Of a stretch of 64,000 nucleotides of DNA, positions 3,905 to 57,647 are shown one piece after another. Source of the DNA: a virus (Duplodnaviria; Caudoviricetes); IMG/VR virus record IMGVR_UViG_3300005573_000008, positions 5,641-69,640 of that record. The stretch is one strand, 5' to 3'. A program made the translations under genes and the position numbers. The stretch's first letter is position 1. The number at the start of each line of letters is the position of its first letter. A model generated the notes under the pieces. That model worked only from the letters and a program-made list of their open reading frames with translations, was not told the DNA's origin and did not search any database.

Positions 3905-6900
3905 TTGCCGCCGCAACGCGAACACATGTTCCATGGAATCACTGCGATGGATGAAAACATCCTGGTCGAGCTGGAAGGTGACGCGGGTCCGGCGACGGCG
4001 GCCATTGACGAGGCCATCGCGTCACTGGACGGGTTGAGCGAGGCGGCACAGGCCGTTGCGGACACGATTGACGCGTCGCTGGGCGGTCTGGAAGATACGT
4101 TCGCCAGCATTTCCAGCTCGGTCGGGGGGTTGGATGCCATCTTTGGTTCTCTACAAGAGAACCTGGCAGCGCTGTCCGACAGTATCGCCGCAGCGAGTGA
4201 CAGTGTGGATGCGCTGGGAAGCTCCGCCGATGCCGCGAGCACGGGCATCGGCGCGCTCGATGCCGCTGCCGCCAGCGCGACCTCGGAACTCACCGGACTG
4301 AGCACGTCAGCGGACACAGCGGCCGGCAGTCTCGACGCGGCCCGAGGGTCCAGCGAAGGGTTCGGCGGCGGCATGGGCAACATGACCATGCCCTTGCTGG
4401 CAGCGGGCGCGGCGGTCGCGGGGGTGGGCATCGGCGCGCTCAAGATGGCCAGCGACTACCAGAGCAGCATGTCGGTCGTGCAGGCGCTCACCGGTCAGAC
4501 CGCGCAGCAGACGCAGGCGTTCAGCCAGCAAGTGCTGGCGATGTCGGGGCAGCTCGGCGTGCCCGCCAAACAACTCAGTGACGGCCTGTACTACGTCCTC
4601 TCGGCGGGCGTCAAAGCCTCGGACGCGATGGGCGTGCTGAAGGTGGTCACCGAGGCCAGCGCGGCTGGCATGGTGGACGCCAGCACCGATGCCGACGCGC
4701 TCACCAGCGCGATCAACGCCTACGGCGCGGGCGCGAGCCAGGCGCAAAACTACCAGGACATGCTGCTGGTCGCGCTGCGCGACGGCAAGACAACGATGCA
4801 GGAGTTGTCGAGCAGCATCGGACGCGCGGCGGTCACGGGCAATGCGGCGGGCTTCAGCTTCAACCAGGTCGCCGCCGCCATGTCCACGATGACCCTGTCC
4901 GGCGCGTCGGCGCACATCGCGGGCATGCAACTCTCCAACCTGATGCGCCAGGTGGGCATCAACGCCAGCACCGTCGCCACCGACGCCAAGAAGATGGGGC
5001 TGTCGTTTGACAGCACCAAGTTCGCCAGCATGAGCCTGTTCCAGCGGCTGCAATACCTGCAAGAGATCACCAAGGGCAACAAGGCCGAGATGCTCAAGCT
5101 CACCGGCGGCGCGGCGGGCTTCCAGGCGGCCATGATGCTGCTCAACCAGGGCGGCGCGCAGTACACCAAAATCCTGGGCGACATGGCCCACAGCCAGGGG
5201 ATGACCGCCAACGCGTTCGCGGTCCACGAGCAGACGATGGCGGCTGAGTGGGACCATCTGAAGGTGGCGGGTGAGAATGCGCTGATCAAATTGGGTGACG
5301 CGCTGGAGCCGCTGGTGAAGGCGATTGGCGACAAGATCCTGCCCGCGCTCAACAAGTTCTCGGCCTGGGCCAGCGCGCATCCCGCCGCCATGCGCACCGC
5401 GTTTCTCGGCATCGCCGCGGCGGTCGCTGCGGTCGCGACCGCCTTCCTGGCCTTCAGACCGGTCGGTGGCATGATCTCAGGCGTCTTCAATGGCATGCTT
5501 GGCAAGGGCTCGACTCTTGGCAAGCTGTTCCTCGGCCTCAAAGGAGGCATGGGCTCGGTCGTTGGCGAGGCGAGCCGGTTCGGGACCGCCTTTGGTGAGG
5601 GCATCTCGACCAACCTGCTCAAGTTTGGGCTGGCGGTGCGACATCCCGGACTGGCGCTGGACGTGCTCAAAGGGAAGCTGGCCGACCTGGCCAAGATTGG
5701 CCCGAACGCGCTGTCCTTCATCGGCAAGGCGGCTGGCCAATTCGGCACGTTCGCGGGCAAGCTGGGCGACATGGCGGGTATGCTGGGCAACCCGGCCCAG
5801 ATGCTCGGCCTGCTCCGTACCGGCTTCATGGGCGCGGCTCAAGGGGCGCTGTCCGCGATACCCGCGCTGGCGGGCATGGCGGCGTCGCTGGGCGCGATCC
5901 TCGTGCCGCTGCTGCTTATCGCTGGCGCGATCGCGCTGGGCATCATCATCTTCACCAGGTTCCACGCGCAGCTGAGCCAGGTCGGTGGGTTCCTGTCGGG
6001 GCAGATGCGCCCGATCTTTACCGATATCCACAACACGGTACAGACCTTCCTGGCGATGGTCCGGCTGCAGTGGCAGGCGACGTGGCCCAGGCTGCGTCCG
6101 GCGGTGCTCGATCTCATCAACGCCTTCAAATCGCTCAGCCCCGTGCTCCAGATCGTCGGTACGGTCATCTCGGTCGTGCTCAAGGTGATTCTGGGGCTGG
6201 TCTCCGGCGTGGTCGGCGGCTTCCTGTCGGCGCTGCCGCAAATCGCCGGATTCTTTGCCGCCGTCTTTCGGCTCATCGGCGACTTTGGCCAGATCATCCA
6301 GGCCATCTTCTCCGGTCAGTGGGGCAAGATTCCCGGCATCATCGGCGACGGACTGCGCCAGATCGGTCTACTCGTCCAAAACGGCCTGGGCTTTGTCCTG
6401 ACCTTCGTCGGCCACACCATTCTCAGCATCGTGCAGTGGTTCGACTCGCTGACCGGCGGCGCGCTGACCGGAGTGGTGAACTTTGTCAAGGGCGTCATCT
6501 CCTTCTTTGAGGGGCTGTTCGACCATCTGGTCGGGCACTCCGTCATTCCTGATCTGGTCAACGGGATCATTCGCTGGCTGACGCAGACCCTGCCAGGCGA
6601 AGTGCTGACTGGCATCTCCAATCTGGTCACACGGGTCATCGCGTGGTTCGCGCAAATGGAAGCCCGCGTGCTCGCGGCCATTACGGCGTTTGTGACAGGT
6701 CTGCTCGATGAAGCCGTGCGCTTAGAGGTGCAGTTCCTCAACACGATCACCCGCATGGTGGACATCGCGCTCGGCTGGTTCGACAGCATGACGAGCGGAG
6801 CCGTCTCCAAGGCAGAAGGGCTCGTCAGTCGGGTCGTGGGCGTCCTGACGGGCCTACCCGGCAAGATCGGGTCGGTCATGCGTGGCCTCATCGCCAACAT

Positions 6901-7483
6901 GCTCGGTTGGGGCGGTGACATGATTCACAATCTAGCATCGGGCATCACGGGCGCGCTGGGCACGGTCACCAATGCCGTCGGGAGCGTTGCCGACAAGATT
7001 AAGTCGTTTCTGCACTTCTCCGTGCCAGACGAGGGGCCACTGGCTGACTTCGACCGCTGGATGCCGGACATGGGCGACAAACTGGTGCAGGGGCTTTCGG
7101 CACAACAGGATCGCGTCAAACAGGCGGCATCCGGACTCGCGCAAGCCATGCAGCAGGGCATGGCCCCCACTGGGGCACTGACCGGCCTCGCGCCTTCCAT
7201 GCCGTCGCTCACCGCAGGTGGGCTGGGCGGAAACACTGGGAATGTTCCGTCGCTCCTGCAGCAGCTGATCACGGAAGTACGTGGGCTGGGTCGCGCCCAG
7301 CCGCTGGGCAGCAACATCACGCCGGCGACACTCGGCACGGTCGTGCAGCAGCAGATCGGCAATGTCAATCTGCAGGGCACGGGCAATGTCGATATCAACA
7401 CGATCTACGCCATCTTTAACGAGCTCGCCGGACTTGCCGTGGAGTACGGCGGCCGCGGCGCGACCGCGGGAATGGGGATCTAA
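3905..7483 (+). CDS. Tape measure protein (TP901-like central domain); likely start 3947
   Basis: 1192 aa Ala/Gly-rich helical protein; TP901-type region (SMSVVQALTG...GLYYVLSAG); hydrophobic periodic repeats; C-terminal HFSVPDEGPL motif. Confidence 0.95.
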   Translation: MPPQREHMFHGITAMDENILVELEGDAGPATAAIDEAIASLDGLSEAAQAVADTIDASLGGLEDTFASISSSVGGLDAIFGSLQENLAALSDSIAAASDSVDALGSSADAASTGIGALDAAAASATSELTGLSTSADTAAGSLDAARGSSEGFGGGMGNMTMPLLAAGAAVAGVGIGALKMASDYQSSMSVVQALTGQTAQQTQAFSQQVLAMSGQLGVPAKQLSDGLYYVLSAGVKASDAMGVLKVVTEASAAGMVDASTDADALTSAINAYGAGASQAQNYQDMLLVALRDGKTTMQELSSSIGRAAVTGNAAGFSFNQVAAAMSTMTLSGASAHIAGMQLSNLMRQVGINASTVATDAKKMGLSFDSTKFASMSLFQRLQYLQEITKGNKAEMLKLTGGAAGFQAAMMLLNQGGAQYTKILGDMAHSQGMTANAFAVHEQTMAAEWDHLKVAGENALIKLGDALEPLVKAIGDKILPALNKFSAWASAHPAAMRTAFLGIAAAVAAVATAFLAFRPVGGMISGVFNGMLGKGSTLGKLFLGLKGGMGSVVGEASRFGTAFGEGISTNLLKFGLAVRHPGLALDVLKGKLADLAKIGPNALSFIGKAAGQFGTFAGKLGDMAGMLGNPAQMLGLLRTGFMGAAQGALSAIPALAGMAASLGAILVPLLLIAGAIALGIIIFTRFHAQLSQVGGFLSGQMRPIFTDIHNTVQTFLAMVRLQWQATWPRLRPAVLDLINAFKSLSPVLQIVGTVISVVLKVILGLVSGVVGGFLSALPQIAGFFAAVFRLIGDFGQIIQAIFSGQWGKIPGIIGDGLRQIGLLVQNGLGFVLTFVGHTILSIVQWFDSLTGGALTGVVNFVKGVISFFEGLFDHLVGHSVIPDLVNGIIRWLTQTLPGEVLTGISNLVTRVIAWFAQMEARVLAAITAFVTGLLDEAVRLEVQFLNTITRMVDIALGWFDSMTSGAVSKAEGLVSRVVGVLTGLPGKIGSVMRGLIANMLGWGGDMIHNLASGITGALGTVTNAVGSVADKIKSFLHFSVPDEGPLADFDRWMPDMGDKLVQGLSAQQDRVKQAASGLAQAMQQGMAPTGALTGLAPSMPSLTAGGLGGNTGNVPSLLQQLITEVRGLGRAQPLGSNITPATLGTVVQQQIGNVNLQGTGNVDINTIYAIFNELAGLAVEYGGRGATAGMGI

Positions 7484-7485
7484 CC

Positions 7486-8307
7486 ATGCCGCTGCCGAAC
7501 TATACATATGGGACGTTCCAACTCAATGACGGCGTAAACTATTTCGTGACGGACAAGAAACTCGGCTTGCCGGAGGTGCAGGAGTCCGTCTTCAAGGTTG
7601 CGCGCTACCCTGGGGTCAAGACGACCGGCACGATTATCAACGAGCGGCGCGCAACGGTGACGGTGGTCGTGGTCGGCAGTTCGCGCACGGATCTCGAAAG
7701 CAAGGTGGATGCGCTGCTCCTGGCGCTCAACCAGCGCCAACAGCAACTGGCCATTCACATGCTGGACGGCCGCTATCTGGTCTGTGACGCCATCAGCGCG
7801 CCGGTCACCTATCGGTCTACGCGCCTCCTGGCGGTCACGATCCAGATCACCTTCCTAGCGGTAGACCCGTACCTGTACGCGGCTAACGCCAGCAGCTATG
7901 ATTCCGGCAGCATCGCCTATACCCTGGTTTCCGGCTCCAACTACACGAGCGGCAATCTGGTGGTGGCGAGCAGTGGGACCGAATATGCCTATCCAACGAT
8001 CGCGCTAACCAACAACAGTGCCGTTACCATCACGGCCTTCACGCTCAGCCAGAACCCGGATGGCACCTCGCTTCAGATCTCCAACCTGTCGTGGACGCAG
8101 GGTGAGACCATCACCATTGGCTGCGACCCGCGCCAGGCCAACGGCTACACCGTCGTCTCCAGCGCCGCGCCCGGGACGCTGCTCGCGTTTTCCGGCACGT
8201 TCCCCGTGATCGAGCCGACCGGCACAGTGCTCACGCTCCAGGTGACCGCATCCGCGCAGCCGACAGTGGACCTGGCCGCGACGTGGACACCACGCTGGCT
8301 GAGTTAG
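7486..8307 (+). CDS. Distal tail protein (Dit)
   Basis: Immediately after the tape measure; 273 aa with the Dit-like FLAVDPYLY motif and a beta-rich C-terminus. Confidence 0.8.
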   Translation: MPLPNYTYGTFQLNDGVNYFVTDKKLGLPEVQESVFKVARYPGVKTTGTIINERRATVTVVVVGSSRTDLESKVDALLLALNQRQQQLAIHMLDGRYLVCDAISAPVTYRSTRLLAVTIQITFLAVDPYLYAANASSYDSGSIAYTLVSGSNYTSGNLVVASSGTEYAYPTIALTNNSAVTITAFTLSQNPDGTSLQISNLSWTQGETITIGCDPRQANGYTVVSSAAPGTLLAFSGTFPVIEPTGTVLTLQVTASAQPTVDLAATWTPRWLS

Positions 8308-8316
8308 AGGTGCGCC

Positions 8317-10293
8317 ATGCCGAACATGCTCACCGCCAACCAGAGCAGCGTGGAGACCGACACCAGCGGCTTCGCGGCCTATGTCGGCGGCGGCGGCAGC
8401 ATTAGCCGCGACACGTCGCAGGCGTGGCAGGGCGCGTCCTCGCTGAAGGTGGTGACCGACGGCTCCGGCACCTACCAGTATGTCGATGCCAGAGTGCCCA
8501 TCGAGTACAACGTGGTGCCGGGCCAGGTGTACACGTTCTCGTTCTACATCCTGGGCGCGTCGGCGGCCGGGACGCTGCGCTACTTCGTCGACAGCGATCA
8601 GGGTGCGGTCTCCAGCGTGCAGACGCTGACGCTCGCCACCAGTTGGACGCGCTACAGCGTCACATTTACCGCCCCGACGAACGTCACGGCGCGCTGGTAC
8701 GCGCCTCGCCTCGATACGGGCGGCACAGCACAGGCGTTGACGTTCTGGCTAGACGGCCTGCAACTGGAACAGAACAGCAGCACGACGCCGTGGACGTTAG
8801 GTGTCGGCTCCAACGCCAACCCGTCCGACAGCTCACCACTGCGCTACAAGCAGCAGATGGTGCTGGTCTACAACGCCAGCGGCACATTTCTTGACGTCTG
8901 GCGCGATGCTCCGCTGCTCTCAGGGGTCAAGTACGCCATCAACAGCGCCACGACGCCGCTGCGGGTGCAACTCCCGCGCCCGTTTGACAACTTCGATGAG
9001 GCGGGCGTGGGCGGCAATCGTGGCACGATCGCGCAGGGCAACATCGTGCAGTACTGGCTCTTCGGGCCCAATCTGCCGGCAGGGGGGCTGCTTAAGTTCC
9101 AGGGTGTCATTGACTCCTACGAGCCACAGATTCTCGATTCCGGCGAAGAGTCGGTGACCGTCACCATCACCCCCTTTGACAGCGTGCTCGCCGATGAGGG
9201 GCTGGTGCTGGGGCAGAGCTTTGGCACACCAGGAGTCTCCAGCACGTACGTCGATCCCGTCGCCATCTTTACCTGGTTCTTCACCAACGACGACAGTCTG
9301 ACCGGCAAACCGTACATGGGTTCCATGACGCAGGATCCGAACAATCCGTCATCCTCAGGGAACCTCGTCGCCTACACGTTCGAGAACCAGTCCATCAAGA
9401 GCATCTTTGACACGCTCGTCACGATGCTGCCGGCCAACTGGTTCTATCGCTGCAATCCCGACAAGACGGTGACGCTCAACGTCGCACCCACGACGGCACA
9501 GCACCAGTTCATCCTGGGCCAGCATATCGCGGTGCCACAGTACCGCAAGGACTGGACAAATCTCAAGAACGTCGTGCGGGTAGTCGGCACCGGCCTGGCG
9601 ACCTCGCTGACCACGGCACTTGCCAGCGGCACGCAGTATACCAGTCTGGCGGTTGCGCCCTTGCCAGTGGGGGTGATCGCGGGCCAGGAACTGGTGATCA
9701 ATGGCAACGGCTCACCGCAGCAAACCGTGACCGTCTCAGCAGATACGGCACAGAATGCGACCAGCGTGCCCGTGAATGCGTTCACGGCCAACAGCAATTA
9801 CGCAGCGCAGACACAGGTGCAGATTCTGGTGCAGGCCACAGCGCAAGGGACGGATCTCTCGACCTTCGGCGCGCGCGTGCTGCAGCTCGCTGACAGCCGT
9901 CTCACCGATCAGCATTCGTGTGAAGTCGTCGCGCAAGGGCTGCTCAACCAGTATGATCGCATGCTGGTGCGCACCAAGCTGCGTATCGTGGACTATCGCG
10001 GCGATGCCAACACGGGGCTGGGATATGACATCGAGAGCATTCAGCCAGGCGATACGTGTCAGATTGTGAACCCATCGGCGAATGCCGCTGACACCCTGTG
10101 GGACGTGTCGCAGTGGGACGTCGGCTACTGGGATTTCTCGCCGGCGGCGGCCCTTGACCAGGTAGCCGTCATCGTGAGCGTGACGTATCGCTGGGACTAT
10201 GTGGATCTTGAAATTGCCTCACTTGCACCATCGCAGGACGTGCAACTGCTCGCCCTGCAGACGATGCTTCAGGATTATACGTTAGGCCGGTGA
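8317..10293 (+). CDS. Tail hub / Tal-like protein with N-terminal carbohydrate-binding-like module
   Basis: The N-terminal ~165 aa resemble CBM4/9-type phage modules (N.S.E...W.RYSVTFTAP...FWLDGLQLEQ); followed by a hub-like region; located after Dit. Confidence 0.7.
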   Translation: MPNMLTANQSSVETDTSGFAAYVGGGGSISRDTSQAWQGASSLKVVTDGSGTYQYVDARVPIEYNVVPGQVYTFSFYILGASAAGTLRYFVDSDQGAVSSVQTLTLATSWTRYSVTFTAPTNVTARWYAPRLDTGGTAQALTFWLDGLQLEQNSSTTPWTLGVGSNANPSDSSPLRYKQQMVLVYNASGTFLDVWRDAPLLSGVKYAINSATTPLRVQLPRPFDNFDEAGVGGNRGTIAQGNIVQYWLFGPNLPAGGLLKFQGVIDSYEPQILDSGEESVTVTITPFDSVLADEGLVLGQSFGTPGVSSTYVDPVAIFTWFFTNDDSLTGKPYMGSMTQDPNNPSSSGNLVAYTFENQSIKSIFDTLVTMLPANWFYRCNPDKTVTLNVAPTTAQHQFILGQHIAVPQYRKDWTNLKNVVRVVGTGLATSLTTALASGTQYTSLAVAPLPVGVIAGQELVINGNGSPQQTVTVSADTAQNATSVPVNAFTANSNYAAQTQVQILVQATAQGTDLSTFGARVLQLADSRLTDQHSCEVVAQGLLNQYDRMLVRTKLRIVDYRGDANTGLGYDIESIQPGDTCQIVNPSANAADTLWDVSQWDVGYWDFSPAAALDQVAVIVSVTYRWDYVDLEIASLAPSQDVQLLALQTMLQDYTLGR

Positions 10294-10901
10294 CCACCAT
10301 GAGCATGCCACGACCCAACTCCATCTCACCTGCCCAGCAGCGTGCAGCACGGGCACGCCAGAACCGGATGATTCGCGAGAGCCAGGCCAAACACCTGCTG
10401 CCCAATCCCGCACCCGCGCCTCAGCCGGGGCGCGCTCCGGCGGGCAAGCGGTTCACATTGGCCGATGTCAGGCGCGTGCAGGTGGACGTGACGGCCGCGG
10501 CACACGGGCGCATCGTGGCCAGCACGCAGCAGGGGCGGCTGTTCCCGCAGGCGCTTGCCGAGCACTTCGGCGCGGCGGGCAACGTGCGCAAGGTGACGAT
10601 TGACGCGCTGCCCAAGAGCGCGTTCTTTCCCATCGCGCCCGATGAGCGCGACCCGCTGACGGGCGGCGAGCCAATGCTGCTGGTCATCACGGTGACACAC
10701 GCCAACCATCCAGACGTGCCGGAGCACACCTGGTACGTCAATGCCGCCGACCTGAGCGACCTGCATCCCAGAACGCACGAGCCGTTGTTCCAGGCCGCGC
10801 AGGCGGCGCAGGAACTGCACCGGCTCTATCCGCACCGCGACATCCCCGCTGACGCTCCCCGCGCGCCGCGCAGGCGCGCGCGCACGAAAGCCAAGGCATA
10901 A
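10290..10901 (+). CDS. Hypothetical tail-operon protein with basic termini
   Basis: GTGA overlap with the upstream stop; 203 aa; Arg-rich ends. Confidence 0.65.
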   Translation: MTTMSMPRPNSISPAQQRAARARQNRMIRESQAKHLLPNPAPAPQPGRAPAGKRFTLADVRRVQVDVTAAAHGRIVASTQQGRLFPQALAEHFGAAGNVRKVTIDALPKSAFFPIAPDERDPLTGGEPMLLVITVTHANHPDVPEHTWYVNAADLSDLHPRTHEPLFQAAQAAQELHRLYPHRDIPADAPRAPRRRARTKAKA

Positions 10902-10904
10902 CGT

Positions 10905-10972
10905 ATGGCAGGCTTGGGCGCATCCCTCATCACGTTCACGCCCTCAACCCTCATCCGCTCGGCGCAGTTAAT
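10905..10972 (+). pseudogene. Orphaned 5' fragment of the small tail-fibre gene (MAGLGASLITFTPSTLIRSAQ)
   Basis: Near-identical peptide to the start at 12154; it runs into insert sequence and stops at TAG 11028-11030. Confidence 0.8.
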
Positions 10973-10980
10973 TACCGAAC

Positions 10981-11008
10981 TTGTGACTACCGCGCGGAAT
11001 TGTATAAT
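10981..11008 (+). promoter_or_regulatory. Sigma70-type promoter of the GIY-YIG cassette
   Basis: TTGTGA (10981-10986), 16 bp spacer, perfect TATAAT (11003-11008), in an AT-rich patch. Confidence 0.7.
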
Positions 11009-11019
11009 GTATAGTGTAA

Positions 11020-11111
11020 GTGCCGTCTAGGTTGGGATTAGCTACCTCAGCCGAAAAAGGGTTTCTCTAGACCCCCTGGCGGTATCGCATTTAGAGACTC
11101 ACACTAGAGAG
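11020..11111 (+). ncRNA. Structured cis-regulatory leader RNA (three-way junction; loop complementary to the RBS)
   Basis: P1 11020-27/11078-85, P2 11030-36/11046-52, P3 11059-62/11071-74; the P3 loop TTCTCTAG (11063-70) can pair with CTAGAGAG (11104-11111) at the start codon. Folded by eye. Confidence 0.6.
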
Positions 11112-12088
11112 TGAGACCAGTGGACAAGCCTGCCCCTTTACCACTGTGCGGTATCTATGCCGCCACGTGTATGCCCACCGGAAAGCAGTACATCGGTCGC
11201 TCCATTGACATTCAACGGCGCTGGAACGATCATCTCAAGCTTCTTCGCGCTAACAAGCACCACAGCCCCCACTTTCAATATGAGTGGAACAAATACGGAG
11301 AGAAAGCCTTCCAGTGGACAGTGCTGGAACAGTGTTCACTCGACCGGCTTACGGAGCGTGAGCAACACTGGATAGACACGCTCGCGCCGCAACTCAATGT
11401 TGCGTTTCAGGTAGACAAGCCATTTGATTTCACGCCAGAGATACGCCAGCGCATGGCTGAGGCGGCACGACGACGCCTTCAACGAGATGGGCATCCTCAC
11501 GTGGGCAAGAAGTTCAGCGCCGAGTACCGCCACAAGCTCGCCATAGCCCATCTCGGACAGGTGCCATCCAATAAAGGTGTGCCGATCAGTGCTGCTACAC
11601 GTCAACGTGTTTCAGAAGCGGTGCGCGCTCATCACAGTTCTGAAGAGTATCGCGCCCGTGTAAGTGCGTGGCAGACTGGCCGCAAGCAATCAGTGAAAAC
11701 GCGCCAGAAACGGTCGGAATCACTCAAACAGGCGTATGCAGAAGGACGACGTATTTCCTTTAATCTAGGCAAGCCTGCATGGAACAAAGGCAAGACGTGG
11801 GGGCCGGAAACACGAGAAAAGTTGCGCCAGATCGGCCTGGAACGCGCCGCCCGTGGCGAAATATCGACTGCCCAACTCATGACATCAGAGGCGCGCTTGA
11901 AAGCGTACGAGACCAGTCGAGCCAATGGCACACTGGCGCGTCATACCATGCCACATTCTGAGGAGACAAAGCGACGCATCGCGGACAAGAAACGCGGCCA
12001 CGTTCAGAGCGCCGAGACCCGCGCCAAACGGAGCGAGTCGCTCAAACGGGCCTACGCGGAAGGGCGTCGCAAGCGGCAAAGTCAGTAA
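11111..12088 (+). CDS. GIY-YIG homing endonuclease with NUMOD3-type DNA-binding repeats
   Basis: CGIYA...QYIGRS...R W..H...EREQHWI...LN catalytic motifs; repeated GKKFSAE / GRKQSVKTRQKRSESLK / HSEETKRRI motifs. Confidence 0.92.
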   Translation: MRPVDKPAPLPLCGIYAATCMPTGKQYIGRSIDIQRRWNDHLKLLRANKHHSPHFQYEWNKYGEKAFQWTVLEQCSLDRLTEREQHWIDTLAPQLNVAFQVDKPFDFTPEIRQRMAEAARRRLQRDGHPHVGKKFSAEYRHKLAIAHLGQVPSNKGVPISAATRQRVSEAVRAHHSSEEYRARVSAWQTGRKQSVKTRQKRSESLKQAYAEGRRISFNLGKPAWNKGKTWGPETREKLRQIGLERAARGEISTAQLMTSEARLKAYETSRANGTLARHTMPHSEETKRRIADKKRGHVQSAETRAKRSESLKRAYAEGRRKRQSQ

Positions 12089-12102
12089 CGGTTCATCAGA
12101 TC

Positions 12103-12133
12103 GAACGGACAGTGTGCGATACGCTGTCCGTTC
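12103..12133 (+). terminator. Hairpin downstream of the endonuclease gene
   Basis: GAACGGACAG (12103-12)/CTGTCCGTTC (12124-33) perfect 10-bp stem; only a short T tail. Confidence 0.45.
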
Positions 12134-12153
12134 TTAGTGCTAGGGGGTAGCGA

Positions 12154-12523
12154 ATGGCCGGTCTCGGCGCAACGCTCATCACGTTTCTCGCCCTCAACAT
12201 TAATCCGCTCGGCTGATGTCAACTCGAATCTCGCGGCGCTCAACGGCGCGAGTGCTCCGTCGTTTACCACGATCACGGTGTCGGGCCTGGCGACGGTGGG
12301 CAAGCTGACGTCGGATGGCGGCAAGATCACCAGCGATGGCGCGGGCAACCTGTCCATCGTGGGACTAACCGCGACCGGCACGATCTCCGGCGCGATTGCT
12401 GCCACGGCACTCACGCTCAACGGCAACCCCGTCCCGATCACCGATACCGCCGGGCAGAAAATCTGGACGGGCACGACCGCGCCGAGCAGTCCAAACATCG
12501 GCGACATCTGGATTAAAGCGTAG
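12154..12523 (+). CDS. Small tail-fibre/adaptor protein with an apparent +1 frameshift at 12184-12186
   Basis: RBS GGGGG then ATG 12154 MAGLGATLIT; an extra T shifts the frame; the +1 frame continues FSPSTLIRSADVNSNL... to the C-terminal TAPSSPNIGDIWIKA. Confidence 0.7.
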
Positions 12524-12532
12524 GCGGTATAC

Positions 12533-13876
12533 ATGGGCACGAAGACATTCGGCAACACCAGCGCGCAGGCCGGTGACACCTACTACTCCACCGCCAACGG
12601 CACCTCGTGGGCCTCCGGTTCGACGGGCACCGCGCCGGAGGAGATGTACATCGACAACATCTACATCTACTGCGGCTCACACGATGGCGGCGCGAGTTCC
12701 TTCACCTTCGGCGTCTTCGACGGCAGCCTGAACCTGCTCTCCTCCACCGGCAGCTATTCGTACGGCACCGGCTACGGCTGGAATCATGGCTCGCTCGGCG
12801 CTGGCTCCTACTGCCATATCGCGTCCGGCGCGCTGTTCAAGGCCGGGTTCTTCGCCACGGGGCAGGGGTCGCAAATTCAGTGCGACACGAACACGACCAA
12901 CGGCAGTTTCTACATCCAACTCAACACCAGCAGCCTGGGCAGCATGGGCGGGGCGATGCACGACACCGGCTCCGGCAACCTCCAGTGGTATGTCACGTAT
13001 TTCCCGCACGCCACGATCTCCGGCCTGTCTTCGTCGAGCGGTACCGTTGGCCAGAACATCGCCGTCTACGGGCAAAGCTTCTCGGCGGGCATCGCGTCCG
13101 TCACGCTCTCCGGCGTCGGCTGCTCCTACTCGGTGCAGAGCGATAGCCAGTTGACCTTCACCGTGCCAGCGGGCGCGAACAGCGGCACGCTGACGGTCAC
13201 GACCTACGCCGGTCAGGCGAGTTACAGCACGTTCTACGTCGTGCCGACCTTCAGCAGTCTGTCGGCGTCCAGCGGGCACACGGGCGATACCGTCTCGATC
13301 TACGGCACGGGCTTCGTCCAGGTCAACGGCGTCTATTTCAACGGCGTCGCTGCCAACTACAGCGTCATCAGCGACACGCAGATCAACGCCACCGTGCCTG
13401 CCGCCGCCACGACCGGCCCGATCCATATTGCCACGGCGGGCGGCAACGCCTACAGCGGCACGTTTAGCATCCTGCCCACCATCAGCGGCTTCAGTCCGAC
13501 CAGCGGCGGCGTCGGCACGGCGGTGACGATCAACGGGTCGGGCTTCGCGGACGCCACGGGCGTGCAGTTTAACGGCACCGCCGCAGGCAGCGTGACGGTC
13601 AATTCGGACACCCAGATCACCGCCAGCGTGCCGTCGGGGGCCACCACTGGCCCGATCACGGTCACCGGCAATGGCGGCAGCGTCGCCAGCGGCACCAACT
13701 TCACCGTTGCCAGCGCCTACGTCTATCGCAACGTCAGCGGCACGAACGAGTGGGTGGACGCGTCCGAGGTCGCTGTCTACCGCAACGTCAGCGGCACGGA
13801 CGAGATGGTCATCGCCACCGGCACGTACGTCTACCGCGATGTCAACGGCACGCCGCAATGGGTGATCGCATCATGA
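12533..13876 (+). CDS. Tail fibre / receptor-binding protein with tandem IPT/TIG-like domains
   Basis: Three repeats of P.I..LS.SSG..G..V.I.G..F....V.F.G.....V.SD.QI...VP.GA.TG.I.V; C-terminal triple YRNVSGT repeat. Confidence 0.8.
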   Translation: MGTKTFGNTSAQAGDTYYSTANGTSWASGSTGTAPEEMYIDNIYIYCGSHDGGASSFTFGVFDGSLNLLSSTGSYSYGTGYGWNHGSLGAGSYCHIASGALFKAGFFATGQGSQIQCDTNTTNGSFYIQLNTSSLGSMGGAMHDTGSGNLQWYVTYFPHATISGLSSSSGTVGQNIAVYGQSFSAGIASVTLSGVGCSYSVQSDSQLTFTVPAGANSGTLTVTTYAGQASYSTFYVVPTFSSLSASSGHTGDTVSIYGTGFVQVNGVYFNGVAANYSVISDTQINATVPAAATTGPIHIATAGGNAYSGTFSILPTISGFSPTSGGVGTAVTINGSGFADATGVQFNGTAAGSVTVNSDTQITASVPSGATTGPITVTGNGGSVASGTNFTVASAYVYRNVSGTNEWVDASEVAVYRNVSGTDEMVIATGTYVYRDVNGTPQWVIAS

Positions 13877-55610: not shown

Positions 55611-57647
55611 ATGAGCCGACGTCGTAAGCGCACAACCAGTACCCGCGCCGCCCGGCCCGACGCCACTGTGGTGCTGGCCGCGATCCGCGATGCGCTCGAC
55701 ACGAATGCTGTGTCCGGCGGCGAGTTCACGGCGGACGCCGCCAGAGCAGCGCGTACGGCCGTGCTGCAGCTGCGCCAGCTCGCGCCGCAGTTGCACGCCT
55801 TCCCTGATCTGCTGGGTGAGATGCGACATGTGCTGGCACAGGCGGAATCACGCGCCCTCGCATTTGCCAGCGCGCGTCCGGAATTGCTCAAGTCCGCTCC
55901 GACCGGTAGCTCGCCAATCGCGGCGGGTGGAGCGGCAGGCGCGTGGGCGGGCATGCACGCGCAGCGGACCGATGCGGTTGGCGTGCCCAACGCCGACTTT
56001 CTGCGCCGGCTCGCCAGCAAGAACCCATGGGTGAGTGCCGCTATCACGACGCGCAAGCAGCAGATCGGGCGCGCCGACATCGCGGTCGTTCCGGCAGATG
56101 AGACGAAGCCATTCAATGCGAAGGTTCAGCGCACCGTTGAGCGACTGCTCAATTTCCCGAATGAGTATCGTGACTCCTACCGCTCGCTCATGGAGCCCGT
56201 GCTCGATGACATCCTGGTGCTCGATCGCGGGTGCATCAGCAAGTCCATGGATGCCCGCCGAATCCCCCACGGCCTCTACTACGAAGACGGCAGCACGATC
56301 AAGATCGTCGCGGACTGGAACGGCGATCCCGCTCTACCACGGTATGTCTACGCCGCGCCGGACGGCATACGTCTCGTGCCGCTGCGCAATGACGAGCTGA
56401 TCTGCATCATGGCCAATGCCGCGAGTTACCGCTTCGGCCTGTCTCCGGTGCAGGTGCTGCTCGACACCATTCGCGCCGACCTCGCCGCAACCGACAAAGC
56501 GGCCAACCTCGTGCGTGACGTGCCGCCTCCGCATCTGGTGCATCTGAAGAACGCGACACAGAACCAGGTCAACGCGCTGCGCAGCGCGTACGAGATGGAT
56601 GTGGCGGGCAAACGGGAACTGATGTTTATGGGCACGGATGGCGACATCTCCGTCTATCCCATGATGTTCAGTCTCAAAGACAACCAGTTCCTGGAGTGGC
56701 AGACGTATCTGGCGCGCAAGATTTGCGCGGTCTTTCAGATCAGCCCACAGCAGATCGGCATCACGTTCGACATCAACAAAGCGACGGCTGAGGTGCAGCA
56801 GGACATCACCGAAGACGCTGGGCTCATCCCGCTGTTGCTGCTGCTCGAAGAGTTTTTGAATCGTGAACTGCTGGCCGACTTCGCGCCCGTCGACAAAGAC
56901 GGCCGGCCGAACATAGACGCGCTGAATCTGCGGATCATCTATCCCGAGGTGTCCGAAATCAGCCGGATGCTGCATGCCGAACGTGTGCTCAAGATGGCGC
57001 TCGGCGGCCTGTCCGGCTTGCCGCTCCTCACGCCAAACATGGCGCTCAAGATGCTCGGTGAGGAGCCGGTACCTGGCGGCAACACCTTCTGGGTGGACAC
57101 GAAGAACGGCCCGATGCCCTGGCTTTCGTATGACGGCGAGACCGGTGACTACGGCCGGTTCGCCACCGCCGGCGACCTGGGTGCGCAGGACCCGGAAGGC
57201 GGGATCGACGAGGACGAAGCGACACCCAGGGACACGACGCAGGAAAAGCCGGACCGTGGCCGCCCCACGGATGCGCCCGGTGGACCAGCGGATCAAAGCG
57301 CGACAACGACGGACGACGCACCGAGCGTGACGCCTCCCACGACCGCGGCCAATGATGCAACCGCCAGTGCACCTGCCACGGCAGCCGCCAAACAGGTGCG
57401 TCGTGTCATCCGCCGGGACACACGCAAGCCCGGCCAGCACTGGCGACCCGAACATGAGCGGACGGTGCCACTCATGCTGACGGGCATGTCAGGCGACAGG
57501 AAGCCGCGCAAGCTCGGCAAAGTGCGGCCTGAGGTGGCAGCCGCCCATCACAAGACGGTCGATGAGGTGACCGCCGCCGCCCAGCTGGCAACAGATCTCC
57601 GGGCCATCTTCGAGGAGGCGCAGCAGCGCGGCACACTGGCTGGATAA
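55611..57647 (+). CDS. Portal protein with N- and C-terminal extensions
   Basis: Follows TerL; DGSTIK, YRFGLSPV, FLEWQTYLARKICAVFQISPQQIG portal motifs. Confidence 0.88.
   Translation: MSRRRKRTTSTRAARPDATVVLAAIRDALDTNAVSGGEFTADAARAARTAVLQLRQLAPQLHAFPDLLGEMRHVLAQAESRALAFASARPELLKSAPTGSSPIAAGGAAGAWAGMHAQRTDAVGVPNADFLRRLASKNPWVSAAITTRKQQIGRADIAVVPADETKPFNAKVQRTVERLLNFPNEYRDSYRSLMEPVLDDILVLDRGCISKSMDARRIPHGLYYEDGSTIKIVADWNGDPALPRYVYAAPDGIRLVPLRNDELICIMANAASYRFGLSPVQVLLDTIRADLAATDKAANLVRDVPPPHLVHLKNATQNQVNALRSAYEMDVAGKRELMFMGTDGDISVYPMMFSLKDNQFLEWQTYLARKICAVFQISPQQIGITFDINKATAEVQQDITEDAGLIPLLLLLEEFLNRELLADFAPVDKDGRPNIDALNLRIIYPEVSEISRMLHAERVLKMALGGLSGLPLLTPNMALKMLGEEPVPGGNTFWVDTKNGPMPWLSYDGETGDYGRFATAGDLGAQDPEGGIDEDEATPRDTTQEKPDRGRPTDAPGGPADQSATTTDDAPSVTPPTTAANDATASAPATAAAKQVRRVIRRDTRKPGQHWRPEHERTVPLMLTGMSGDRKPRKLGKVRPEVAAAHHKTVDEVTAAAQLATDLRAIFEEAQQRGTLAG

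Follow-up and report, generated by a model that had tools for sequence, protein, structure and literature searches.

A divergent int-alpA-class leader RNA precedes a phage homing endonuclease gene and carries a loop complementary to two boxes ahead of the start codon

The window, a stretch of 64,000 nucleotides, covers the greater part of a complete viral contig (69.6 kb; terminal repeats; about 65% G+C). Its siphovirus-type tail module includes the tape measure (3905-7483), a Dit-like gene (7486-8307) and a fiber-like gene (8317-10293). Between 10900 and 12100 the G+C content falls to about 52%, and this segment holds a promoter, a structured RNA and a gene for a homing endonuclease with GIY-YIG and NUMOD3 domains (11120-12088, plus strand; Pfam and PHROG matches). 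The probable start codon of the endonuclease is the GTG at 11120, and a database gene call of 322 residues is identical to the open reading frame (ORF) that begins there. Public sequencing runs containing 10900-12200 amounted to two DNA entries and no RNA entry; both are hot-spring metagenomes, and one of them has 96% of the sampled words and may be the sample from which the sequence came. Elsewhere in the window, ARAGORN called an unusually long tRNA-Pro (CGG; 98 nt; 56301-56398, minus strand) amid long ORFs on both strands, which may be a false call, a tRNA with an intron or what is left of an attachment site.

The endonuclease gene is part of a mobile cassette, on either side of which lies a copy of the 5' end of the downstream tail gene, one orphaned at 10905-10966 and the other at about 12152-12215; the two copies differ mainly at silent positions, as expected for a recoded homing site. 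The orphaned copy has a 1-nt deletion, reads into the leader and stops at the UAG of a CUAG junction within the RNA (11028-30). Rfam scans gave no match to any intron family, and the flanking gene is not split but has its 5' end duplicated on both sides, so we found no indication of a group I intron.

The left arm of the cassette (10967-11019, plus strand) includes a sigma-70-like promoter, with 10 of 12 matches in a promoter scan. The TATAAT that the sequence-only reading had recognized at this position proved to be the -10 element (11003-08) of a near-consensus promoter whose -35 element, TTGTGA, lies at 10981-86 across a 16-nt spacer. The predicted transcript start is at about 11015, 4-5 nt ahead of the first helix of the RNA. 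No terminator-like site was predicted at the window leader.

The RNA is a three-way junction on the plus strand (11020-11085), and this structure is both the minimum free energy and the centroid fold, at -23.4 kcal/mol. Its closing helix P1 (11020-27/11078-85) has 8 bp, some of them G-U; P2 (11030-36/11046-52) has 7 bp, two of them G-U, and a loop of AUUAGCUAC; P3 (11059-62/11071-74) has the stem GGGU/ACCC. The helices are joined by CUAG (11027-30), GAAAAA (11053-58) and CU (11076-77). The three helices and the GAAAAA junction had all been proposed beforehand, and each is present as described. The z-score of the fold against shuffled sequence is only -1.7, and -0.3 with the tail included, so folding energy alone is insufficient to establish the junction; it is further marked by covariance-model matches and by family-wide covariation of P1-P3, described below.

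The loop of P3, UUCUCUAG (11063-11070), is complementary to two downstream boxes and can be described as an anti-box, or anti-Shine-Dalgarno, loop. A short linker (11086-11090) leads from P1 to box 1, UUAGAGA (11091-11097), an upstream copy of the Shine-Dalgarno (SD) box and a candidate pseudoknot partner of the P3 loop, to which it is complementary over six Watson-Crick pairs and one G-U pair. Box 2, CUAGAGA (11104-10), is the SD region itself and sits in the 8-nt loop of a further hairpin, P4 (11098-11115; stem CUCAC/GUGAG, 11098-102/11111-15), found in the minimum free energy fold of 11012-11130. Here the P3 loop can pair with CUAGAGAG (11104-11) through seven Watson-Crick pairs and one G-U pair. 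Both complementarities, over 7 and 8 nt, had been pointed out from the sequence and are indeed there. As isolated duplexes, the loop:box1 and loop:box2 pairings have energies of -9.0 and -10.1 kcal/mol, respectively.

Two details of that earlier description need revision. It had assigned the box to the ribosome-binding site of a GTG at 11111, but this codon lies within the 3' strand of P4, and 11104-10 is more probably the SD region of GTG 11120, which follows P4 by 4 nt. The SD of the window (GAGAG/GUGAG) is weak, and therefore the boxes are not simply SD copies. An alternative helix, GUCUAG (11025-30) with CUAGAC (11067-72), had been suggested to mask the loop; the two strands are complementary, but the helix is not conserved in the wider family. 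It is probably incidental, because the window loop happens to contain CUAG and other members do not form the helix.

Two IMG/VR contigs and a related prophage, the latter on the same 384-kb metagenome contig, have a sister of this cassette at the identical site. On the ENA contig (k141_947251), the two related prophages lie about 130 kb apart, and both cassettes follow a tail gene of about 200 codons, with different genes downstream (128 versus 418 aa); the arrangement looks like homing between co-resident prophages. The sister endonuclease is 80% identical at the protein level. At the nucleotide level, identity between the cassette variants leaps from 60% to 94% at about 10967: the promoter and leader are 94% identical, the coding sequence 84% and the flanks 60-71%. 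Because the leader is more similar than the coding sequence, and the coding sequence more than the flanks, we conclude that the promoter and the RNA travel with the endonuclease and are constrained more tightly than the protein.

Six changes in or near the RNA distinguish the two variants, and the P3 loop is identical in both. In the sister, A11058>G gives P3 a G-C pair at its base, A11071>G leaves a U-G pair in place, and U11091>C turns a loop:box1 G-U pair into G-C, so that box 1 reads CUAGAGA; U11021>G weakens the end of P1 by breaking its second pair, and the remaining two changes are at unpaired positions. Close homologs of the endonuclease yield just this one other leader variant, and covariation was therefore drawn from the wider family. 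A more distant GIY-YIG gene (L136; 28% identical) has the same type of leader with another code, a loop of GCCCUCCA and boxes UGGAGGG and GGGAGGG. A nucleotide search with the leader against GenBank phages returned only chance 20-nt matches.

The wider family is one that Rfam already holds. Positions 11020-11097 match the int-alpA model (RF02996) over its full length (model positions 1-71) with 31.5 bits, below the gathering cut-off of 35.8, and Rfam at gathering thresholds accordingly gives no match in the window. The E-value is 4e-4 in a multi-family scan of 2 kb (10600-12600) and 3.6e-6 over the 69.6-kb genome, in which this is the sole match to RF02996. The junction nucleotides C-UAG, CGAAAA and CU-G are present at 11027-30, 11052-58 and 11076-78, and box 1 aligns to the conserved 3' end of the model (positions 66-71). 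Genuine int-alpA members from E. coli score 60-70 bits. They lie between a satellite-type integrase, which they directly follow, and a variable ORF of about 300 aa that starts about 20 nt further on and has an AlpA-type regulator behind it. A box that follows P1 (UAAGGC) complements their P3 loop (for example GCCUUA), and so does the SD region AAGGU, which sits in a small hairpin loop before the AUG, a plan that goes beyond the content of the Rfam model.

The window RNA shares with these members the order of helices, the junction nucleotides, the full-model match, the post-P1 box that pairs with the P3 loop, and the SD box in a small hairpin before a same-strand ORF. It differs in having a longer P2 (7 bp and a 9-nt loop versus about 4 bp and 5 nt), a P3 of GGGU/ACCC rather than GCGG/CCGC, and a sigma-70-like promoter of its own. 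The setting is also different: int-alpA follows an integrase in a satellite island, whereas the window element lies between tail genes, before a GIY-YIG gene, with no integrase/alpA context. As judged from sequence, the window element is a divergent int-alpA-class member. The motif is catalogued, and the window RNA is therefore not a new kind of element; what is new here is an int-alpA-type element that falls below the Rfam cut-off and lies in a different context. Rfam types int-alpA as an sRNA without a stated mechanism. It is reportedly among the candidate RNAs of Weinberg and colleagues from 2017. The main text of that article (PMC5737381) does not mention int-alpA, and a full-text search found no paper on its mechanism; papers that name it merely list it.

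We scanned one-genome-per-species bacteria with an exact pattern that specified only the junction core and nothing downstream of it, which gave at least 120 loci, and a relaxed-P3 pattern found 18 viral contigs. Together the scans give at least about 140 instances, from viral contigs and from many bacterial phyla, and the listed bacterial loci come from Proteobacteria, Planctomycetota, Acidobacteriota, Bacillota and other phyla. R1, a covariance model made from 108 instances with the window and its sister left out, gives a single match when both strands of the 64 kb are searched, at 11019-11119 on the plus strand (E = 1.3e-6).

The family has a fixed layout relative to the gene that follows. 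Among the matches listed, 129 of 139 distinct instances have a same-strand ORF with its start close by, for the most part 36-48 nt past the core, and 108 of these 129 ORFs begin with ATG. A hairpin of 4-6 bp with a loop of 6-9 nt ends 0-5 nt before the start codon in these listed matches, and such start-proximal hairpins score far above shuffled sequence. Box 1 follows P1 after a linker with a modal length of 5-7 nt, which is G-poor and pyrimidine-rich (6% G and 44% U among the listed matches). The window leader matches this plan, with its loop UCUCUAG, box 1, a P4 of fitting stem, loop and spacing that carries box 2, and GTG 11120 four bases on. Other general features did not hold up. A promoter directly upstream of P1 was found in only 7 of 114 listed instances, the window and its sister being two of them, and the linker is not a general terminator U-tract, as runs of four or more U occur in only 20 of 96 listed cases. 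We also rejected a CsrA site, suggested by GGA in the boxes, since many boxes, including those of the window, lack GGA, and a hammerhead-type ribozyme, since by eye the junction lacks the CUGANGA core.

The pairings are maintained across the family. Among the listed matches, 94.6% of the alignment cells in P1-P3 are paired, versus 69% in shuffles, and the covariation score is 0.60, versus 0.13 in shuffles and about 0.07 with slid partners. Loops and boxes vary in length and fall out of register in the alignment, and we therefore compared each leader's own P3 loop with swapped loops in a register-free manner. In 117 leaders among the listed matches, 82% of own loops can form at least five contiguous Watson-Crick pairs with the box-1 region, versus 12% of swapped loops; for the hairpin-loop/SD region the values are 58% and 13%. 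None of 5000 permutations reached the observed loop-box sums, and the result stands in 98 non-redundant representatives of the listed matches. A column-based count on the model-made alignment, in which loops and boxes are out of register, gave about 60% pairing in the best 5-bp register among the listed matches. The position of the loop covaries with both boxes family-wide, and the family contains at least 63 distinct box sequences. These analyses carry out the model search and the loop-RBS covariation check that the sequence-only reading had proposed, and both came out in favor of a conserved element.

They also bear on the simplest alternative, a functionless chance structure in an AT-richer intergenic spacer. 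The modest energy z-score is what such a structure would show, but the element matches two covariance models at E-values near 1e-6, its leader is conserved above the coding sequence and it has every family feature that lies outside the models. The R1 match, the loop-box covariation and the conservation between cassette variants effectively refute this explanation, and we consider it extremely improbable.

Building on the observed fold, homology, two complementary boxes, covariation and fixed geometry to the start codon, we propose that the element is a divergent int-alpA-class leader whose P3 loop pairs alternatively with box 1 or with the SD-overlapping box 2, the balance between the two setting endonuclease translation. 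We hold this reading to be probable, with room for doubt. The element would be the 5' untranslated leader of a free-standing GIY-YIG endonuclease cassette with its own promoter, and the junction, with its invariant C-UAG, CGAAAA and CU-G nucleotides, would present the P3 loop as an anti-Shine-Dalgarno sequence with two mutually exclusive partners on the same transcript. Pairing with box 1, a single-stranded box 5 nt past P1, would form a pseudoknot that leaves the ribosome-binding site free, whereas pairing with box 2, in the P4 loop 4 nt before GTG 11120, would form a loop-loop kiss that hides it. The balance of these states would then keep endonuclease expression low or conditional.

We infer three further steps: repression of translation by the box-2 pairing, a decoy role for box 1 and regulation of the balance. 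Translational repression through RNA structures that sequester the ribosome-binding site is established for homing endonucleases of phage T4 (PMC2988022), and this precedent makes repression the natural reading. One P3 loop cannot block both boxes simultaneously. The isolated-duplex energies of the two pairings are similar, so neither state is predicted to be obviously dominant: the family means are -9.0 kcal/mol for loop:box1 and -8.1 kcal/mol for loop:box2, and box 1 is the stronger partner in 76 of 117 leaders (both among the listed matches). Because box 1 is on average slightly stronger, the element might be ON by default, and it could just as well serve as a tuner, an insulator or an activator.

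The genes behind the leader indicate that its role is general. Among the listed matches, the 129 downstream proteins fall into 102 clusters, most without a Pfam domain, and nucleases make up roughly a tenth of these clusters. The domains found include GIY-YIG, HNH/AP2, PDDEXK, DUF559, primases, Rha, a tail tube protein and DUF6387. On the upstream side, a same-strand tyrosine integrase is present in 39 of 116 listed cases, and otherwise an HTH protein or a phage structural or regulatory gene; the integrase context is typical of core-pattern instances, not universal. With 102 unrelated cargo clusters and varied upstream contexts, we conclude that the leader is a portable module and is not specific to nucleases. 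The initial idea of a translational switch or pseudoknot limiting a toxic nuclease is thus supported by comparison in its first part, as the loop, box 1 and the SD box covary in 117 leaders among the listed matches, but not in tying the element to nucleases. The int-alpA motif, these comparisons suggest, may control the translation of whichever gene follows it.

Such diverse cargo (102 unrelated families among the listed matches) is also what a generic expression module would have, and the leader might be static. The junction and the loop:box1 pseudoknot would then be constitutive, stabilizing the 5' end or insulating the cargo gene from what lies upstream, with the SD displayed by P4; nothing would switch, and box 2 would match the loop simply because the box had been duplicated. 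Of the two boxes, box 1 usually pairs better, and the length of the linker suits a compact pseudoknot. We nevertheless consider a static leader unlikely, as box 2 changes with the loop over 63 codes among the listed matches, at a level well in excess of swapped loops, and drift would erase this agreement unless the loop:box2 pairing were selected.

If the loop does move between box 1 and box 2, the junction itself might be what moves it, by binding a small molecule, an ion or a protein. CUAG, CGAAAA and CUG are invariant or nearly so across phyla among the listed matches while the helices and the loop vary freely, a pattern typical of binding pockets. This invariance is partly built in, because the scan pattern required the junction nucleotides; such conservation can moreover be purely architectural, and the cargo genes share no pathway that would point to an obvious ligand. 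We regard a sensor as quite improbable.

A different possibility is that the junction acts in trans, as a processed antisense RNA in the manner of P1 C4 or P4 CI. It would be cut from the leader, for instance in the G-poor linker, accumulate, and pair with the two boxes of further transcripts from the same cassette or a sister, giving negative feedback and an element-specific 'immunity' encoded in the loop and box sequences. Rfam files int-alpA as an sRNA gene, the layout of C4 is comparable (a closing stem and two hairpins, one with a long antisense loop), and two boxes per loop suit an excess of free repressor RNA better than a one-to-one cis switch. The multitude of box codes (at least 63), the two sister prophages whose same-loop cassettes share one 384-kb contig, and the two or three copies at some loci would also fit. 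On the other hand, a cis element needs a fixed site directly before the start codon and a trans regulator does not require one, and we judge a trans-acting RNA rather unlikely.

Two or three int-alpA-type leaders lie within a few kb of one another at several loci, namely L042 (5588-5679, 3147-3241 and 782-871), L051 (1640-1730 and 2051-2145) and L106 (3576-3668 and 4251-4347); the tandem copies of L051 have the same loop/box code (CCUGG / CCAGGA). A stronger form of the trans proposal is that loop and box constitute an address code, with the freed junction RNA as a programmable repressor of any transcript that has matching boxes. We give this idea similarly little credence. If it were true, cassettes with the same code, such as those of two sister prophages on one chromosome, would throttle each other while those with different codes would be blind to one another. 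The family would then amount to an RNA-based immunity or copy control that is widespread among bacterial phyla and acts on the cargo genes of mobile elements, an analog of P1 C4 and P4 CI without being related to them.

Under the cis reading that we favor, int-alpA, catalogued as an orphan sRNA, would have a role: the comparative data point to a cis-acting, portable module of translational control. Its design combines a conserved scaffold, a freely re-codable anti-SD loop and two matching boxes. Satellites, prophages and phages of Proteobacteria, Planctomycetota, Acidobacteriota, Bacillota and other phyla have it ahead of more than 100 unrelated cargo genes, among them nuclease, primase and structural genes. 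For the phage studied here, it would offer an account of how a free-standing homing endonuclease with a strong promoter in a tail operon could stay tolerable. The arrangement of scaffold, loop, decoy and SD box could also serve as a programmable expression part.

The proposed control is reminiscent of two known systems. Hairpins that sequester the ribosome-binding site precede the T4 genes for I-TevI, I-TevII, I-TevIII, segB and mobE (reviewed in PMC2988022), and, as we propose for the window, a structure in the leader RNA of a phage homing endonuclease gene there occludes the SD and restricts translation. The T4-type element is a simple local hairpin that is bypassed by a late promoter inside it (PMC2988022), whereas in the window the anti-SD is a distal loop on a conserved junction that faces a competing, putative decoy box, and the promoter lies upstream of the whole structure.

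The second system comprises the P1 C4 and P4 CI RNAs (RF01695, clan CL00128), to which the sequence-only reading had loosely linked the element. That family link did not hold: the element belongs with int-alpA, and a local Rfam scan of 10600-12600 gave no match to C4, CI or isrK at E ≤ 10, whereas in an E. coli satellite that search does recover C4, at 74-82 bits. In that P4-like satellite (L009; NZ_CP027586.1, 2133667-2138712), an int-alpA RNA follows int, and an isrK RNA and two C4 antisense RNAs inside Icd-like genes lie 1.5-2 kb beyond it, so both kinds of loop-antisense RNA coexist in one element. The likeness to C4 and CI is thus a functional analogy only, in that the hairpin loop of a structured RNA encoded in the leader is complementary to sites on that transcript and, in the case of C4, a layout of a closing stem and two hairpins. 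One of the C4 target sites covers a ribosome-binding site. C4 and CI have no sequence or model similarity to the window RNA; they are processed and act in trans, in P4 on transcription termination.
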